A DNA stretch of 64,000 nt from Promethearchaeati archaeon SRVP18_Atabeyarchaeia-1 (lineage in GTDB: Archaea > Asgardarchaeota > Atabeyarchaeia > Atabeyarchaeales > Atabeyarchaeaceae): positions 1,568,001 through 1,632,000 of the forward strand of contig CP147779.1 of the NCBI GenBank assembly GCA_037308085.1, written 5' to 3'. The notes under the pieces are model-generated. The model was not told the origin of the DNA, made no database searches, and saw only the letters and a program-made list of their open reading frames with translations. Both the position numbers and the translations under genes were made by a program. Of this stretch, positions 3,036 to 59,321 are shown one piece after another. Numbering within the stretch: the first letter of the stretch is position 1; every line of letters begins with the position of its first letter.

Positions 3036-3343
3036 AACTTGGAGCTGGGTCTGTTTCTATTCGAGAAGCATGCACCAAGCTTTCTCTCTCGCTTCGTGGA
3101 GAGATCCTTTGGACTCTCACTTCGATTTCTTTTGTCAAGGATAATCGCAGGTATTCTTTGGTAACGTCATAAATCAACCCCAATCCGGGCAAAATGCGTA
3201 AGCGATCTCATTTACATTGATTTCGTACTAGCTTAAGTAGTGGACTCTTCAATTGCTCTAGGCAAGAAAGGATGGGGTCACGCCTTTCTTCAGGGCAGGA
3301 CACATAACAGGAATACTCTGCAGCGATTCCTGGCGGAGCTGAT

Positions 3344-4678
3344 TTGATGGATAGAATCTCCATTGAAAAGGTTCTACGAATGATAAGCGTTGTAGGAATA
3401 TTGGTCTGCGGAATCACTTTCCTTGTAGTTGTTCTTCCTCTGGCTAGCATAATATCCTATGACATTATGTTGCCCCCGACAGTTATGGACATACTACTTG
3501 GAATGTTCGTGACAGTCACTCTAGTCCTTGCTCTTTCGATGGTTTTGTCCGTCAAATCGCGTATGCGCCTGATAAAACCCAGAAGGCGGCAATCTCACTT
3601 GGTATTGAATGTCTTTGCCATTCTATTCTTGATTGCCATACCATTTTGCACTGCGACCATCTCAAATGCATACCAAGAGCCCAACACCTATCAACCGCTT
3701 AGCACTTTTGATCAAACCAATTGGGTTCACTTCAATGGTACAGCTTGGGGGCAGAGCCAAGAAAAGGTTTGGAGCGAATTGAATTATCTCTGGGGGGACA
3801 AACCGGAAATTGCGCCTTTGAATCCACAAGTCCTTGAGCAGACCCATTTACAGGGATATACGCGTCTCAAGATGCAGATTTCGGTAGAGAATTCTGGCAT
3901 CCCCCAATGGGACGTCGTGCCCTTCTACTTGTTAGTCCCTGATACCCCGCGAGCCTATCCATGCCCAGTGGTGATTGTGCACCATCAGCATAATGGAAGG
4001 TTTGAATATGGCAAGATGGAGCCCTGTGGCATAGCTGGAGACCCGCGACAGGCAATTGGGGTCGATCTTGTTCAGCGCGGATATATTGTCGCTTGTCCTG
4101 ACGCTCTGTGTTTTGGTGAGCGCCAAGTCTATTTTGGCGAAAAATACACTGGCATGCTAATGTTCATGCTCAATCGCACTCTCAATTTCAAGTATATCTG
4201 GGATGTCAGCCGTCTCATAGACTACTTGGTGACACGCTCCGATGTCAACGAATCGCGCATTGGGATAATGGGTCACTCGCTTGGAGGTCAAATGGCAGTA
4301 TGGTGCGCCGTCTACGATCCTCGAATAAAGGTGGTTCTTTCGAATTGCGGAATCGGGAAAATAAGTGGAAACAACTCGATCATCGAAGAGGGGTCTTTCC
4401 AGAACTACGCTTTCTATGTACCTGGCATAGTGAAACTGAATCTGAAAATGGAAGAGATAATTGGGCTAATCGGAAACCGATCACTCTTCCTAGCAGCGGG
4501 CACTGAGGATCACGGCTTGCCGATCAACGGCGTGGCAGAAATACATAATTGGCTTGAAGAGAAATACGCCTACTACGGTCATTCAAACAATCTCGTCACC
4601 CTGCGATTTGTCGGCGGACACATGCTTCCAACCGACACGAAGCTGAGGATGTATGGTTTCTTGGATCAGGAATTGTGA
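3344..4678 (+). CDS. Membrane-anchored alpha/beta hydrolase (dienelactone hydrolase-like)
   Basis: Three N-terminal TM segments; GHSLGG nucleophile elbow; C-terminal GGH. Confidence 0.85.
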   Translation: MMDRISIEKVLRMISVVGILVCGITFLVVVLPLASIISYDIMLPPTVMDILLGMFVTVTLVLALSMVLSVKSRMRLIKPRRRQSHLVLNVFAILFLIAIPFCTATISNAYQEPNTYQPLSTFDQTNWVHFNGTAWGQSQEKVWSELNYLWGDKPEIAPLNPQVLEQTHLQGYTRLKMQISVENSGIPQWDVVPFYLLVPDTPRAYPCPVVIVHHQHNGRFEYGKMEPCGIAGDPRQAIGVDLVQRGYIVACPDALCFGERQVYFGEKYTGMLMFMLNRTLNFKYIWDVSRLIDYLVTRSDVNESRIGIMGHSLGGQMAVWCAVYDPRIKVVLSNCGIGKISGNNSIIEEGSFQNYAFYVPGIVKLNLKMEEIIGLIGNRSLFLAAGTEDHGLPINGVAEIHNWLEEKYAYYGHSNNLVTLRFVGGHMLPTDTKLRMYGFLDQEL

Positions 4679-52079: not shown

Positions 52080-53753
52080 TTGATGAACAGGAACTTAGCA
52101 ATCATCCTAGTTGTTGGCGTGATCGTCTTTTCCGCAGGCTTAACTCCACTGATTCTTGTGAATGCTCAAAGCCCTAGTCAGACATTCTCGACAACTTCGT
52201 CTGATGGCACCCGAATAGTGTATGACGTAACTATGAGACCAGGTACGCCGATGAATGCGCCCGTTGCGGTACTGATCCACGGCTTCTCCGGAAACAGGAT
52301 AATGATGAGGATGATGGCCTTCGCTCTCGCTGACAAGGGCTTCATCTGTGCATCGATCGACCTTAGGGGTCATGGATCAAGTGAGGGTGTTATGGATGGA
52401 ACCGGCAGTTTCGTCGATGATGTGTACGCTGTAATCGGAGCTCTTCACGCAAGCGGGATAGGAAACACGTCAAGACTACTTCTGGTTGGGCACAGCATGG
52501 GCGGAGGGGTTGTGCTCACCCTCGGTACGCAGCTCACATCAGTCGCCGCCATCATCGGCGTTGCACCCGCATCATCACCAGCCTGGGTTAACACTACAAC
52601 TCCGAAGAATCTACTGCTAATAATCTCAACCGGCGATTCAGTGATCAACGCCACCACCGTGAAGCAGACATTCAACAAATCCGTAGGCTTGCCATCTTGG
52701 AACCCCAACACGATCTACCATGTAAATGGAACCGATAGAGAGCTCTTCGTCGTGGCTGGTCCAGACCACCTGGGCATACTCTATAATGCGGCGGTAATAA
52801 GCCAGATCGTATATTGGGCAACTACTTACGTGATGGGAGCAGGACAGCCTCTAGGGACAAGCCCAGACGTGATCTACTTGGCTGTGTACGTATCCATCGC
52901 TGGCGGCGTAATCATGATCATCTCGGCATTGGCCTTGGTGCATGAGAAACTATGGCAACAGAAGAAGAAACCAGAAACGAAAGGCAAGACAGATGTCAAG
53001 AACCTGCTCATATTGGGAGTCCTGGCAGTGCTCCTCGCAGGAGTCTTGGGTTCAGTCGTTGCTGTCGTGATGACATTTGTCTTGGTCTTGGTAACGCCTC
53101 TCTTTGTGACCAACTTCCTAATGGGGATTTTCCTTGGAAATTCGATAACGCTAGGAATTTTTGCAATGATGAAGTTGAGGCATAGTAGCAAGGAGTTCTC
53201 GTACCGTAGATTCCTCAGAGAATCAATCATTCGACCATCAGTCAAGGTGGACCTTGCGTCTGGAATTGTGGGAGCAATAGCTTTCATGGCGCTGCTTGCA
53301 GTGACTTTCGGCGGCAATACGACACTGACGTTTTCAACTGCATCAATTAGGCTGATCTCTCTACCTCTCTGCATACTGATCTTCGGCCTGGTCTTCATGT
53401 TCTACGAGTCGTTTTTCAAGGCTGTTGCAAGACCGTTGATGGCCGATGGAGCCAAGCGCATGGTTCTCTCAGTGATCTTTGAGCTCATAGTACTCCTAGT
53501 GGCCTTCGTGATTGAACTGGTGATCATAACAACGCTCTTGTCATTAGCTATGCCATCATTGGGCGTAGGCTCACTCATACTTGGGCTGGGGCTTCAGATG
53601 GTTCTACTCGTCCTTGTTCCTCTGTCGATAGGCGTACTATCAGCCGAGCTCTTCTACGGGAAGACAGGTGGATGGCTCACACAGATCATAATAGGTGCGC
53701 TCCTCTTTGCCACGCTGACCGTGGTATTCTCGCCTGTCCTGTACCTCTTCTGA
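52080..53753 (+). CDS. Alpha/beta hydrolase with a C-terminal multi-TM domain
   Basis: Signal/TM, HGFSG, DLRGHG, GHSMGG. Confidence 0.85.
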   Translation: MMNRNLAIILVVGVIVFSAGLTPLILVNAQSPSQTFSTTSSDGTRIVYDVTMRPGTPMNAPVAVLIHGFSGNRIMMRMMAFALADKGFICASIDLRGHGSSEGVMDGTGSFVDDVYAVIGALHASGIGNTSRLLLVGHSMGGGVVLTLGTQLTSVAAIIGVAPASSPAWVNTTTPKNLLLIISTGDSVINATTVKQTFNKSVGLPSWNPNTIYHVNGTDRELFVVAGPDHLGILYNAAVISQIVYWATTYVMGAGQPLGTSPDVIYLAVYVSIAGGVIMIISALALVHEKLWQQKKKPETKGKTDVKNLLILGVLAVLLAGVLGSVVAVVMTFVLVLVTPLFVTNFLMGIFLGNSITLGIFAMMKLRHSSKEFSYRRFLRESIIRPSVKVDLASGIVGAIAFMALLAVTFGGNTTLTFSTASIRLISLPLCILIFGLVFMFYESFFKAVARPLMADGAKRMVLSVIFELIVLLVAFVIELVIITTLLSLAMPSLGVGSLILGLGLQMVLLVLVPLSIGVLSAELFYGKTGGWLTQIIIGALLFATLTVVFSPVLYLF

Positions 53754-53924
53754 GAAACCACAAAGTCAACGACGGAATCTTACCCACTCCCCATTTTTTG
53801 GGAATGCACTTAATGTCGATCTTAGCGTGGCAAGGCCATTCTCATCACGAGGCTTTCTTGCCCGAGTTTGTAAGGCGTGTGCGCCTTGAAAGCGCAGACT
53901 GTTCTTATCATACTTGCGCATCGT

Positions 53925-54072
53925 CAAATCTGGTCGATATCATCGATGAATTGCACGGCCAGCCTCAACATGTCTCAAAGGTAGCCAACTTTTCTGGCGT
54001 GTCTTCACGATTGTGCCAAACAACCTAGAACCCATCCTCTGCCAGACCGATAACTGAGGTCGTCTTAGGCCC
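53925..54072 (-). pseudogene. Decayed duplicate of the 3' end of the M28 peptidase gene
   Basis: Translates TSVIGLAEDGF*VVWHNREDTPEKL/DMLRLAVQFIDDIDQ versus intact TSVIGLARDGFPVVWHNREDTPKKL/DMLKLAVQFIEDVDQ. Confidence 0.9.
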
Positions 54073-54121
54073 CTATTATTCTGTTCTTGAGAATGGGTGG
54101 TATTTAGGGTTCCGTGGGCAA

Positions 54122-55255
54122 ATGCCTAGCGAATATCGAGGCAGATCAGATTTGGTCCATGAGTTGAATATTGATAACTTGTCGTCTCAAGAGTGGAGTT
54201 ATCTTCACGGGTTGTTTCTGACAGATGGGTGCTCGAATATTTCGAGGATCAGAGGCTCGCCTATTGGTTATCGAGTGGTATTCTATTTCGGTGGAAAGAG
54301 CGATGATGAAAAGGCTTCAGCCCAAAAAGTTGCAGGACTATTGAAGCGTATTGGACTGAACCCAAGGATCAAGGCAGTTCCAGGAAAAAGGATGATAATA
54401 GTGCAAGTATTCTCGAAAACCCTCATGAGATTTCTGCCAGACAAGAACAAGCTGACGATAGATGCCAAGGAGAGACAGAGATTCTTTGAGGACAATGGAC
54501 TCTGTGATACCGGTGGCAAGAGAGGAATTGCGTTCTTGGCAGGTCTCTTGGATGGCGATGGATACTGTGCGGTGGATGTGGCGACTTGCCGCTTTGGGTT
54601 GTTGCAGCAATAGAAGTAGGGTTTTACTCAGGGCAAGTATCCGTTTCTCGTTGACTATATGAGGAGGCTCATTGGGTTCCTTTCTCAAGATAGTGTGAAT
54701 GTTAGGATGCGCAATGACGGCTGTTCTGAGGTACGTATTTGTAAGCCTGGGATTGTGGCATTACTCAATGCTGGGATCGCGAAATACTCTTGGAGAGTGG
54801 GCGTCTGGCTGAAGAGAATAGCCGCGGCTCGGAGCGAAAGAGCGAAGTACTATACTGTCGGGCAGGCTGCACGTGAATTGGGCGTCATGTGTAAGACTGT
54901 GCGAAAGTGGCTTAGAATGGGCAAAATGAGGTGGATCAGAAGAGAGGGAACCAGAGTAAGAAAGAGAACCAGAACGGTGATGGGTCGATCCTTATCATGG
55001 TACTATATTCCTATTGACGAGGTAGTCAAGCTTAAGGCTTCCTTGGAAGCCGAGAGGCAAAGTGTGCGAATGCTAAAGAATGAAGGGGTGGAGTTTTCGA
55101 GACTAGCTAAAATGTTGGGTGTCCCATATTCTACGCTGTATTGCTGGTATCAGGGCGGAGTGTTTCAAGCAATGCTGGTTAAGGAGAGGAATCTGCGAAT
55201 CTTGATAGTGCCGAAGAGAGAAGTCGAAAACATCAAGAGAAAAGCGGAGAAATGA
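54122..55255 (+). pseudogene. Double-motif LAGLIDADG endonuclease with C-terminal HTH domains, interrupted by two in-frame TAGs
   Basis: YLHGLFLTDG and FLAGLLDGDG; ORFs 54122 and 54659 share a frame; TAG at 54611 and 54617. Confidence 0.85.
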
Positions 55256-55271
55256 AAGGACCAAGTCTCTC

Positions 55272-56507
55272 CTACTCTCTTTTCCTTTCATCTGCCCCTC
55301 TTTGATCCACGTCTTCAATGAATTGCACTGCCAACTTCAACATGTCATACAAGTTCTCGCTGCTCAGCTTCTTGGGAGTATCTTCACGGTTGTGCCAGAC
55401 TACTGGAAATCCATCTCTCGCCAGTCCTATCACTGAGGTTGCTCTGATTCCCTTTTTTGAGTAGAATGCTGAGTCCGTTCCTCCCATTGAGAACGGACGT
55501 ATCTCAACAGGGTACTTGATACCACACTTGGAGGCTGAATGTTGAAGCATCTTGCAGAGTTCCATTGAGTGCTTCGTCGTATACATCTTCTCCTCGTTCA
55601 CAATCACGAACCTACCAACTCCAGCGGTGTCAAAGTTTATTACATAGGTGTTCCATTTTTCGAGTTCCCTTAGATGCCTGTCTACGAATCTTTTTGAGCC
55701 ACGCATACATTCTTCACACCCATGCGAGATCAATAGAACGCTCGTATTGCGTGGTCTGTTGCCTGAAAGATACTCGGCGACTCCGAGGGTGACCGCAACG
55801 CCTGAGAGGTTGTCATTTGCCCCCAATGTTTGTGTGCCAGACTTCAACCCGAGTCTCAATGCTACAGTCAATATCACACCTATAATGGGCACTAGAATGA
55901 GGAGATCAAAGAGTCTGAATCCCAGAAGGGTCCAGTTCATGTAGAACAGGTTGAAGTACTCGCCCGAGATCTTCGCGACATACACGGCGAAGATCAGACC
56001 GATAACTACTATTATGATGGTTATGAACCTGGATGACTTCGCCCTCCACTTTATTGGAATTGGGAATTCGACTGGGCTATCGTGGTGTGCCCCAATTATG
56101 ACAGTCGCCTTTGCCTTTCCCTTCGCTTTGATTTTCCCATAGATATTGGCGGAGGTTCTCTTCCTGAATAAGGGGTCGGCGAATTCTCGCAGGTGATTCA
56201 TCTCCAGGACGTAGCAGAGTAACCCCAGGACCGTGAGCAAAACTGAAACCCAGGTGAACCACAAGTAGAATCCTGCGGCCAAAAGCTGCAGTACAGGAAT
56301 GATATTGAGGATCCCTAGGAACCCTCCAGGCCTACACGTGAAAGGCTCAACTTTCACCTCGTCGCAGAACCTCTCATACTCCACCTTTATCACCTGGCCG
56401 GCTTTCGACTCGTTTTCGCTGGTGCCAGGTCTTGACCCTATGTCCTTGCAGACGCGCTCTATGAAGCCAAACATATAATCAACATAGGACTTCTTATCCA
56501 GCTTCAT
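55272..56507 (-). CDS. M28 family peptidase with TM insertions
   Basis: GAHHDS, GANDNLSG, CEE, GGTD, WHNREDT. Confidence 0.92.
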   Translation of the reverse strand: MKLDKKSYVDYMFGFIERVCKDIGSRPGTSENESKAGQVIKVEYERFCDEVKVEPFTCRPGGFLGILNIIPVLQLLAAGFYLWFTWVSVLLTVLGLLCYVLEMNHLREFADPLFRKRTSANIYGKIKAKGKAKATVIIGAHHDSPVEFPIPIKWRAKSSRFITIIIVVIGLIFAVYVAKISGEYFNLFYMNWTLLGFRLFDLLILVPIIGVILTVALRLGLKSGTQTLGANDNLSGVAVTLGVAEYLSGNRPRNTSVLLISHGCEECMRGSKRFVDRHLRELEKWNTYVINFDTAGVGRFVIVNEEKMYTTKHSMELCKMLQHSASKCGIKYPVEIRPFSMGGTDSAFYSKKGIRATSVIGLARDGFPVVWHNREDTPKKLSSENLYDMLKLAVQFIEDVDQRGADERKRE

Positions 56508-56777
56508 CGTAATCCCTCACTACCCATGTTCGCGCTGACCAGCTACATAATTGTTTAGTTTCATGGTTCTGTTAACTCTTCGAGTGATGAGTCAACTGGG
56601 TGGGTAGCTCGCTTTGTCTACGATGGGAGGGGGTTGCGAAGAGAGAAGAAAGCGGGACGAGGTAACTCAAGTTCAGCAATAAGCATTTATTAGCCGCGTG
56701 GGCTGTTACGTGGTGAATATACTGTTGACGCGCGCCCGAGGGCGCCGTTTGTGCGAATCAAGGTGGTCATCGAAGAG

Positions 56778-59321
56778 ATGGTGAAGGTATTGAAGGATGA
56801 GATCCCAGAAGTTGGGAGCGTTTCGTTTGAGAGTCAGGCATCGAAGCCGGTCCCGTATGAATGGGGGTTCGGGTCCACCCCGCGTACGGCCCGCCTCAGA
56901 GCCGCCCTCAAGTGGAAGGCGGCCGTCGTAAAGGACTTTGAAAACATATTCATGGGGCTGGCGAAGTGTGGGTTCAGAAACGGGGAAGACATCAAGGTTG
57001 ATATAGACCGCGCGAGGCTCATAACTGAGTCGTACAAGCAGACCGATGGGCAACCGTGGGTCAGCCGCGTCGCCAAGGCTTTCGTTCATCTCTGCGAAAA
57101 CATGCCTATCTACATCAAGGATGGCGAGCTGATTGTCGGTGATCCCAACAGCGCGCCGGACGAACTGCGGTGGCACCCAGAGATATGCTCGCACTTCATG
57201 TCCGGCGCCGTCACCGACGGAAGCTTCTCAAGTATGGTCACCGACGCTGAGAGGGAGGAGATTGTCTCCAGCATCTGCGCGTTCTGGGACGAAAGGAGCA
57301 TCGCCGCAAGGATAAGGGCGGTCCTGCCCCGAATCTCGTGCCAAGACATATTCGAGGGGCTCGCCACCCCCATAGAGGCGAAGCTGTGGGAGATGGGAAT
57401 AGTAAACCCGTCTTACGATTACTCTGCCCTCTTCAAGGAGGGGCTAAACGCGCGGATCGAGAAAGCCGAGCGCAGGTTAAGGGAGCTCGAGAGTGGCACC
57501 CTCGGGATTCCGCCTTCCCAGTATGTGGAGAAGAGAAACAACTGGGAGGCGATGATCATGTGTGGCAAGGCTCTAATTCGTTTTAGCCAGCGCTACGCCG
57601 AGCTCGCGAGGAAGCAGGCGCAGCTGGAGCGGGACGCCATGCGCCGGCAGGAGCTGGAGGAGATAGCCGACGTGCTGGAGCGCGTTCCGGCCAACCCCGC
57701 AAGGACATTTCGCGAAGCCCTCCAGTTTTACTGGATCGTAGAGGTCGCCGCCAAGTTCCTCGCCGTGTACGGACACGGCGGCGGTCACAGGTTTGACCAG
57801 ATATTCTTCCCCTATTATGAGGCGGACATGAAGAAGGGCAAGCTCGCCCGCAAGCAGGCTTTGGAGCTCATTGAATGTCTCTTCCTGAAGATACAGGAGG
57901 TCGGCATCGCCCTCGAGTACCCCGTGACATTCACCGGCAAAGCGGGCGGCGAAATATTCTACACGATAAACATTTGCGGAAGCAAGAATAACGGCGAAGA
58001 CGCATCCAACGATCTGAGCTGCTTGGTTCTGGAGGCGATGTGCAACCTCCGCATCAACCAGCCACCGATAGCGGTTCTCTACCACAAGAACATCTCACCA
58101 GCCATCGTGGAAAGGGCAATAGACCTTCTTCACCTTGGCACAGGGCATCCTTCTTGGTTTAACGAAGATCTCCTTCAGGAATTGATAATGCTACGTGGTT
58201 ACTCTCCGAAGGATGCGAAGCGTGTTACGGTGGGGGGCTGCGTCACGCCTCACATCACAGGGAAATACCTGATTACAACTGGGACACCGGGCATCGGAGG
58301 AATGATCCTTCCAAAAGTGCTCGAAGAAACCTTGTATGACGGCGGTTCTACGGGAAACGAGGGCAGACCTGACAAACCGAAGACGAAGGATCCTAGGATT
58401 ATGACGTCCGCCGACGAATTGCTGGAAGCGTTCCTCGAGCGCGCCCTCTTCTACTGCAAGGAGATGACCTTCGCGTGGAACCTCGCCCAAGAAGTGCTAA
58501 TGGCAACCAGTCCAGATCCCTGCAATTCCCTACTCCTCGATGAACCCCTAGACAGGGGAATTGACCTGAAGAAGTTGCACAAGGAATACGATACGTATCC
58601 TGCTGTTTTCGCCTTGGGATTGATGACTGTTGCGGACTCGCTTGCCGCTATCCAGAGGCTCGTTTTCGACGAAAAGAAGTACACGATGGACGAGCTCATA
58701 ATAGCGTTGAAGAATGATTGGAAGGGGTACGAGGCGATGCGTCAGGAGTTCCTCAACGCCCCGAAGTACGGCAACGACGACGACTACGCCGACTCGTGGG
58801 CTGTGAAGCTAGCCACACACTTTGAAAACACGATCAGCCAGTTGAAGGACGCGTGGGGGTACAAGCTACTGAGCGACGGCGGAACCGCCGCGGGCTACCA
58901 GACCGTTGGACTGACATGTGGCGCCACGCCGGACGGGCGACATGCGATGACACACCTGACGGACGGGAGCCGTTCCCCGATGGCGGGAGCAGACAAGAAG
59001 GGTCCAACGGCTGTGCTGAATTCAGCGGGTAAGATACCATTCACCCACATGGAGCTCTTCAACCAGCGCTTCATGCCCACCTTTCTAGAAGGCAAGAACA
59101 GAGAGCTCTTCGCGGCGTACCTGAGAGTGTGGTGCGAGAAGCGCACAATACCGCACATACAGTTCAACGTCGTGGACAGTGCCCTTTTGAGGGATGCGCA
59201 GAACCACCCTGAAATGTATACCGACTTGCAGGTTAGGGTTGCGGGGTACAGCGCGTTCTGGATCGACCTACCAAGAGGAACACAGGACAGCATAATCGCC
59301 AGAACAGCGCACAGCTTCTAG
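56778..59321 (+). CDS. Glycyl radical enzyme (PFL superfamily), unassigned subclass
   Basis: Cys loop GGCVT, TPDGR, HIQFNVV, VRVAGYS. Confidence 0.93.
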   Translation: MVKVLKDEIPEVGSVSFESQASKPVPYEWGFGSTPRTARLRAALKWKAAVVKDFENIFMGLAKCGFRNGEDIKVDIDRARLITESYKQTDGQPWVSRVAKAFVHLCENMPIYIKDGELIVGDPNSAPDELRWHPEICSHFMSGAVTDGSFSSMVTDAEREEIVSSICAFWDERSIAARIRAVLPRISCQDIFEGLATPIEAKLWEMGIVNPSYDYSALFKEGLNARIEKAERRLRELESGTLGIPPSQYVEKRNNWEAMIMCGKALIRFSQRYAELARKQAQLERDAMRRQELEEIADVLERVPANPARTFREALQFYWIVEVAAKFLAVYGHGGGHRFDQIFFPYYEADMKKGKLARKQALELIECLFLKIQEVGIALEYPVTFTGKAGGEIFYTINICGSKNNGEDASNDLSCLVLEAMCNLRINQPPIAVLYHKNISPAIVERAIDLLHLGTGHPSWFNEDLLQELIMLRGYSPKDAKRVTVGGCVTPHITGKYLITTGTPGIGGMILPKVLEETLYDGGSTGNEGRPDKPKTKDPRIMTSADELLEAFLERALFYCKEMTFAWNLAQEVLMATSPDPCNSLLLDEPLDRGIDLKKLHKEYDTYPAVFALGLMTVADSLAAIQRLVFDEKKYTMDELIIALKNDWKGYEAMRQEFLNAPKYGNDDDYADSWAVKLATHFENTISQLKDAWGYKLLSDGGTAAGYQTVGLTCGATPDGRHAMTHLTDGSRSPMAGADKKGPTAVLNSAGKIPFTHMELFNQRFMPTFLEGKNRELFAAYLRVWCEKRTIPHIQFNVVDSALLRDAQNHPEMYTDLQVRVAGYSAFWIDLPRGTQDSIIARTAHSF

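Follow-up and report, generated by a model that had tools for sequence, protein, structure and literature searches.

A free-standing LAGLIDADG element at a peptidase gene of Atabeyarchaeia, and the case for homing by gene-end replacement on an archaeal chromosome

Gene-end replacement has been set apart as a third, considerably rarer category of homing element, in a preprint whose text does not mention archaea (Osborne et al., 2026; 10.64898/2026.08.13.744650). The chromosomal examples described so far are the WHO elements found at FBA1 in Torulaspora and Lachancea yeasts, in which the 3′ end of the gene is replaced, the fragment left behind serves as a homology arm, and the 3′ tree is discordant (PMC7282813). 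Their allele-specific cutting was confirmed in the same preprint (10.64898/2026.08.13.744650). In fungal mitochondria, comparable elements are the atp6 mORF of Allomyces macrogynus (Paquin et al., 1994, as cited in PMC3630166 and PMC4019555) and the mORFs of Glomus sp. at atp6, atp9, cox2, and nad3 (PMC3630166). Free GIY-YIG genes duplicated together with the atp9 N-terminus offer some precedent for duplication at the 5′ side (PMC7487136). The preliminary description of the archaeal locus presented here took intron- and intein-free homing by 3′-end replacement on an archaeal chromosome to be undescribed. Given the yeast elements, this is wrong for chromosomes in general; what remains is that no report of gene-end-replacement homing in archaea was found in the searchable literature, which leaves out most subscription journals. 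The paper on mobile elements of Atabeyarchaeia, which reports conjugative elements and viruses for this lineage, does not mention LAGLIDADG (PMC11529989).

The locus lies in the window, i.e., the whole 64,000-nt stretch that was analysed (G000:C1:1568001-1632000), within a genome made of a single contig of 2,808,651 nt (G000). An intact M28 peptidase gene is followed by an endonuclease gene on the opposite strand, and then by a decayed second copy of the peptidase gene end, the remnant (Table 1). No further peptidase copy was found in the G000 genome. The live end and the remnant share 40 aligned codons, 34 of them encoding the same residue (19 synonymously), with 89/120 nt identical; at the site of the 7-nt deletion, the remnant has 11 nt against 18 nt in the live gene. 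These counts, the TAG and the deletion reproduce exactly those first reported. The local alignment score is 164, compared with a mean of 67 and a maximum of 86 after shuffling. With a pS of 0.85 and a pN of 0.07, the copies must have diverged under selection before one of them died, in agreement with what had first been inferred. Judged by this substitution pattern, the two are homologous ends that each evolved as coding DNA, and a fresh duplication is excluded. Divergent from the peptidase, a gene for a glycyl radical enzyme of a PFL-like family (856 aa; 56751-59321, + strand) looks like a separate insertion, because relatives carry other genes at that position.

Table 1. Features of the peptidase locus (window positions) and of other loci of the endonuclease family.
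Feature	Position or locus	Strand	Evidence and remarks
M28 peptidase, host gene, 411 aa, intact	55272-56507	-	Pfam PF04389, E=8.5e-23; live
Foreign 3′ part of peptidase, codons ~241-411	55272-55787	-	95-98% identity to L082; travels with the element
Intermediate zone, peptidase codons 181-240	55788-55967	-	89% to L082, 81-84% to L082's clade, 75% to L088
Predicted target region, peptidase codons ~347-359	55431-55469	-	Inferred, no cleavage data; adjoins start of remnant homology
LAGLIDADG-HTH endonuclease gene, 377 codons, free-standing	54122-55255	+	PF14528, E=3e-8; HTH_17, E=4e-7
In-frame TAG pair, endonuclease codons 164 and 166	54611-54619	+	TGG (Trp) in L081 orthologue
Remnant, decayed copy of peptidase codons ~353-402	53924-54078	-	Alignment to live gene
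Near half of remnant, codons ~353-378	53989-54078	-	70/77 nt same as L081; TAG at 54025-54027
Far half of remnant, codons ~379-403	53924-53985	-	7-nt deletion; TGA at 53924-53926; 39/65 nt vs L081
Alpha/beta hydrolase gene, flanking	52080-53753	+	Outside moved block; 73% to L081
Duplicated 3′ ends, gene converging on nuclease	Peptidase, dodecin, L062, L074		Duplicate test
Duplicated 3′ ends, gene upstream on same strand as nuclease	L072, L092		Duplicate test
Duplicated 5′ ends, live gene downstream	Ferredoxin (two genomes), L058, L063, L070, L071 (GTPase-like gene)		Duplicate test
Non-coding stretch of ~200 nt	L061:4018-4200; L080:5228-5412; L071:3425-3608; L063:5060-5240; L075:3158-3325; L073:4980-5175; L044:2625-2805 (G000 110639-110834)		
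Small divergent gene	L070:3749-3934; L046:1152-1520; L038:1152-1346; L060 upstream; L077:5075-5266; L093:1811-2074; L064 upstream		
GC-rich palindromes	G000 910960-911010 and L093 upstream		94% over 51 nt
GC-rich palindromes	L060 and L077 upstream		77% over 162 nt

A second filled allele, from a second species, is carried by metagenome contigs of JGI sample 3300038421. L081 holds the hydrolase, the remnant and the endonuclease, while L082 holds the peptidase and the end of the endonuclease; both are short, and their sole join is a 127-nt identical overlap. Compared with the window, this allele is ~73-80% identical outside positions 53989-55787 and 90-98% identical inside them, with a dS of 1.04 outside the block and of 0.137 and 0.086 inside. 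On the peptidase side, identity to L082 rises from ~80% over codons 1-180 to 89% over codons 181-240 and 95-98% over codons 241-411. On the other side, identity to L081 is 91-98% in the endonuclease and 70/77 nt in the near remnant, then 39/65 nt in the far remnant and 73% in the hydrolase. The two halves of the gene also yield conflicting trees. Over codons 1-180, L082 groups with L083, L089, and L090 (support 98/96), and an AU test rejects its grouping with the window (p=0.0009); over codons 241-402, window and L082 are sisters (100/100, branch 0.33), and the 5′ grouping of either one is rejected (p<1e-6). Over codons 241-350, the identity of either one to the ten other alleles is only 66-76%, and none of the ten is close enough to be the donor. 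The segment is therefore foreign in both filled alleles, regardless of whether L082 is correctly assembled.

The identity steps and the conflicting half-gene trees delimit a moved block of about 1.8 kb (~53989-55787). It comprises peptidase codons ~241-411, the endonuclease gene and the near remnant, and its junctions fall within the live gene on one side and within the remnant on the other. Such a two-sided conversion tract is what homing predicts. The block recently moved between two Atabeyarchaeia species ~20-27% diverged, and the live peptidase is mosaic, resident in its 5′ part and foreign in its 3′ part. The tract and the trees thus uphold the preliminary claim that the element replaced the end of the peptidase gene, but over at least 170 codons, or the final 40% of the gene, instead of the ~50 proposed. 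The zone of codons 181-240 is probably an older or longer conversion tract, an inference only; its likeness to L082's clade hints that the block passed through that clade, although the direction of transfer is not established.

The remnant itself appears to be chimeric, with carried DNA in one half and resident DNA in the other, a further amendment to the preliminary description. The near half is nearly the same in L081 and hence moves with the element; it is likely to be the second homology arm. The far half is read, from its divergence, as the former gene end of the host lineage itself. In L081, the far remnant matches L090 and L085 at 56/72 nt, as against 43-44/72 nt for the live foreign end, and the hydrolase has its best matches in the same two (78.6% to L090 and 77.3% to L085), all of which is consistent with an old end belonging to that host. 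In the window, the best match of the far remnant is L088, the nearest allele in the 5′ part, by a marginal 46/65 against 45/65.

Empty alleles at orthologous loci were to be expected from homing as first proposed, and there are nine of them, with a single peptidase and no endonuclease (G001, G002, L083, L085, L086, L089, L090, L094, and L095; G002 is a family-level relative of G000). Two peptidase alleles are filled, and one is undetermined: L088, not counted as empty because its sequence ends 64 nt past its stop. The contrast in occupancy is between species only. In G002, L085, L090, and L095, the converging hydrolase gene directly adjoins the peptidase stop, the place taken by the remnant in the window. 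This bears on the possibility that the remnant was left by the deletion of a tandem peptidase paralogue, or is an assembly artefact. Tandem M28 paralogues do occur in distant Asgard genomes (G010, ~34% identity), and in L083 the region beyond the peptidase on its downstream side (L083:6272-8567) is locally duplicated in tandem, an unrelated event, with a 45-nt copy of the gene end and no nuclease. However, every close relative has just one gene, where tandem paralogues would have refuted the original reading; the layout recurs with different mutations in the independent metagenome; and the remnant occupies the stop-codon site of the empty alleles. Such an origin is hardly tenable. At 81%, codons 351-402 of L083 show an unusual similarity to the foreign end in the window.

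The endonuclease combines a two-motif LAGLIDADG region with two C-terminal helix-turn-helix (HTH) domains (Pfam; the C-terminus is HTH_17/MerR-like). The catalytic positions, Asp35 and Asp146, are kept in the window protein and invariant in 22 homologues that are 30-46% identical. A model of the L081 protein (pLDDT 90, pTM 0.85) has I-AniI and I-DmoI as its best Foldseek matches at E~1e-8 (3.5e-9 to 1p8k and 1e-8 to I-DmoI), and the predicted fold can be described as I-DmoI/I-AniI-like. Between the two filled alleles, the endonuclease has a dN/dS of 0.39 (binomial p=0.003 against neutrality). Codon changes and residues thus point to a nuclease under purifying selection with its active site intact, cleavage itself being inferred. 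The L081 orthologue has Trp codons at both TAG sites and an intact nuclease part, with a late frameshift in the second HTH. Readthrough of the amber codons was considered and rejected: no pyrrolysine synthetase (PylS) over the cut-off was found in G000, and TAG is the peptidase's own stop. By its reading frame, the window's copy is then dead, and comparison with L081 indicates that it died after the block had moved, by two nonsense changes. Dead nuclease copies are usual late in a homing cycle.

Several other kinds of element can be set aside. An Rfam search of the window gave no match at all, and hence no sign of an intron; Pfam revealed no intein domain, the nuclease being a separate ORF on the strand opposite to the peptidase. 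No transposase domain reached the Pfam cut-off, the flanks show no inverted match (z 0.2), and the peptidase-end duplicate is only 74% identical, unlike the identical target-site duplications of insertion sequences and transposons. The element therefore fails the criteria for these, i.e., transposase, terminal inverted repeats and identical target-site duplication. Of the features of gene-end replacement, it has a free-standing nuclease, an intact gene beside a decaying duplicate of its end, both types of allele, and a discordant 3′ tree. Very probably, then, the window holds an intron-free and intein-free homing element of the gene-end-replacement type, cleavage and resistance being inferred.

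How would such an element move? The unit would consist of the endonuclease gene and its own version of the peptidase 3′ end. The enzyme is inferred to cut an element-free peptidase allele near codon ~352, for which there are no cleavage data, and repair on the carrier allele, presumably by homologous recombination, would then involve two crossovers, one in the live gene and one in the stranded remnant. A recipient would thereby acquire the endonuclease gene and a chimeric remnant, its peptidase becoming chimeric but still functional; this end product is what the window shows. The incoming end is presumed to be uncuttable. Both filled alleles stand apart from 9-10 of the 10 others at the third position of codon 351 and the first position of codon 354. 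A cut near the start of the remnant homology, at codons ~351-354, is inferred from these positions, and changes at codons 337, 351, and 354 are no more than candidates for the resistance. The first entry at a new gene may have needed a single illegitimate join, creating the remnant. The intact L081 nuclease domain lends itself to a test, given ten naturally occurring alleles as candidate targets and two that are candidates for resistance.

The same arrangement could be imagined without any cutting. If foreign DNA had arrived through ordinary horizontal transfer, integrating by homology at one end and by an illegitimate join at the other, the nuclease would be a passive passenger that never cuts the peptidase, and a diverged copy of the gene end would likewise be left behind. 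Extra cargo between remnant and nuclease at some loci (L070 and L074), and the lack of a duplicate at 14 of 26 loci, would fit such transfer. Against this, one and the same block was taken up by two species, with a crossover to either side of the nuclease gene; purifying selection acts on the enzyme, whose active-site residues are intact; and the layout recurs with the same endonuclease family at 11 unrelated genes. Passive carriage is accordingly regarded as unlikely, and homing by gene-end replacement as the better account.

Members of the endonuclease family are present at unrelated genes, with 6 copies in G000, ~20 in G001 and 4 in G002. Among 400 Asgard genomes, full-length matches are confined to these three, which restricts the clade to Atabeyarchaeia within that set, the remaining hits being weak, single-motif and mostly inside long ORFs; in a large protein library, the family forms ~100 clusters at 50% identity, ~90 of them below 1e-30. 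Flanking duplications, which homologous endonucleases should show if the preliminary reading were correct, were scored against 646 mismatched cross-locus flank pairs (99th percentile 36.8). Of 26 testable loci, 12 show a direct duplicate at p<0.01, where ~0.3 would be expected, and the peptidase locus scores 101.5. The 12 loci represent 11 genes, with six 3′ ends and five 5′ ends, so that replacement, initially thought to concern 3′ ends only, affects 5′ ends as well. In the latter layout, entry would bring a new start to the gene, by a mechanism that is inferred. A rule placing the remnant always on the 5′ side of the nuclease was rejected, as it lies downstream in L072 and L092. At the 14 loci with no detectable direct duplicate (L078 has an inverted one), either decay of the remnant or duplication-free insertion would explain the absence, and the two were not separated; a search for tRNA targets of these copies with ARAGORN gave only two doubtful calls.

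Flanks of family loci map collinearly onto empty alleles in G000 (blastn), and the dodecin and ferredoxin loci are empty in other genomes. At four loci (dodecin, L058, L071, and L072), the empty allele is more similar to the remnant than to the live end, while three (L062, L063, and L074) are neutral; counts are 12:4, 13:6, and 11:6 in favour and 8:8, 6:7, and 23:26 neutral. At dodecin, remnant and live end match the empty alleles at 65 vs 58 and 64 vs 60 of 90 nt. The peptidase runs against this (8:13 and 7:12; 84-85 for the remnant vs 89-90 for the live end, of 120, to G001/G002), but there synonymous sites are saturated and half of the remnant is carried DNA.

Some of these loci deserve mention on their own. 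Just beyond the window (L041, G000 1635400-1637530), a second dead family member, with one TGA, has replaced the dodecin 3′ end, and the dodecin remnant is closer than the live end to the empty alleles of G001 and G002. In L072:1-3500 (G001 C110), a flavodoxin-like gene stands between two family members, upstream and downstream, the downstream one followed by the old 3′ end; both ends of this gene may have been replaced. In L078 (G001 C258), an enoyl-CoA-hydratase-like 3′ end is found on either side of the nuclease (3069-3900), the two copies being inverted; the full-length gene is missing from the surroundings, and the arrangement reflects rearrangement or misassembly. In L070 and L074, additional genes or fragments, 1.6-1.8 kb upstream, lie between remnant and nuclease and resemble captured cargo.

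The number of copies at unrelated genes, and non-coding hairpin segments that are 75-93% identical between unrelated loci, could suggest a transposon-like LAGLIDADG-HTH protein that inserts widely and captures gene ends without allele-specific homing, like WHO10 of Torulaspora globosa. Nevertheless, copies that are only 30-46% identical imply no recent burst, and orthologous loci retain orthologous elements (ferredoxin in G000 and G001; L064 and L077). Furthermore, the duplicates are recoded homologues and not target-site copies, transposase and terminal repeats are absent, and the sole recent move observed is from allele to allele. Transposon-like spread is thus very unlikely. The balance tilts, by a modest amount, towards Atabeyarchaeia possessing a dedicated, readily retargeted and splicing-free family that homes across species and rewrites either end of genes, including promoter-plus-start replacement at the 5′ end. 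If so, the rare third category would be common among archaea, where it would genuinely give rise to mosaic genes. In practice, gene trees of Asgard archaea can be mosaic across hundreds of bases beside such elements, and for the family's compact LAGLIDADG enzymes the starts of remnants allow a guess at the cut sites.

The closest likeness is with WHO. Both are free-standing chromosomal LAGLIDADG genes with an added C-terminal DNA-binding domain (PMC7282813), lying between a live gene and a decaying 3′-end fragment that acts as second arm, with a discordant 3′ tree and frequent nuclease pseudogenes. The window's element, which appears to work like WHO, does not qualify as a member of the WHO family since it has no intein-derived splicing region, zinc finger or FBA1 target; its added domains are HTH. 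In addition, the archaeal family hits many genes, whereas WHO mainly hits FBA1; it includes 5′-end versions, and the window nuclease is on the opposite strand. Transfer took place between species ~20-27% diverged, no stacked clusters were seen at the peptidase locus, and cleavage, demonstrated for WHO, is inferred for the archaeal element.

Like it, the fungal mORFs bring in a foreign C-terminus by interspecific transfer, strand the native one and target multiple genes within one genome, but they belong to organelles, share a transcript with the host gene and often stand in its reading frame. Free-standing phage endonucleases (T4 seg and mob, PMC2988022; HEG-islands, PMC10055350) also do without intron or intein and co-convert a neighbouring gene, and some have a hairpin over the ribosome-binding site; they are, however, GIY-YIG or HNH enzymes, usually inserted between genes with a distant cut site and no stranded gene end. 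Archaeal intron and intein enzymes such as I-DmoI and PI-PfuI share the two-motif monomeric fold, but splicing spares their host gene and they lack the HTH tail. Beside these systems, the peptidase locus offers an archaeal chromosomal case of what looks like gene-end replacement, in which the two conversion junctions are mapped and the element has recently crossed from one species to another; new here are the mapped cross-species tract, the family-wide census with its 5′ cases, and a testable set of enzyme and targets.

Other cassettes of the family have further upstream features, the first two of which the window's element lacks. One is a non-coding stretch of ~200 nt, 65-93% identical between unrelated loci whose proteins are ~40% identical, and present as a single copy in G000. 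It folds as a long hairpin with few compensatory changes; a second inverted repeat, covering a Shine-Dalgarno-like word before the ORF, was seen by eye and not recovered by RNAalifold. Another is a small gene, divergently oriented and upstream of the nuclease, with weak Pfam matches below the cut-off to AbrB/MazE or ribbon-helix-helix proteins; its product is probably a repressor. Finally, GC-rich palindromic motifs are common to cassettes with different types of regulator.
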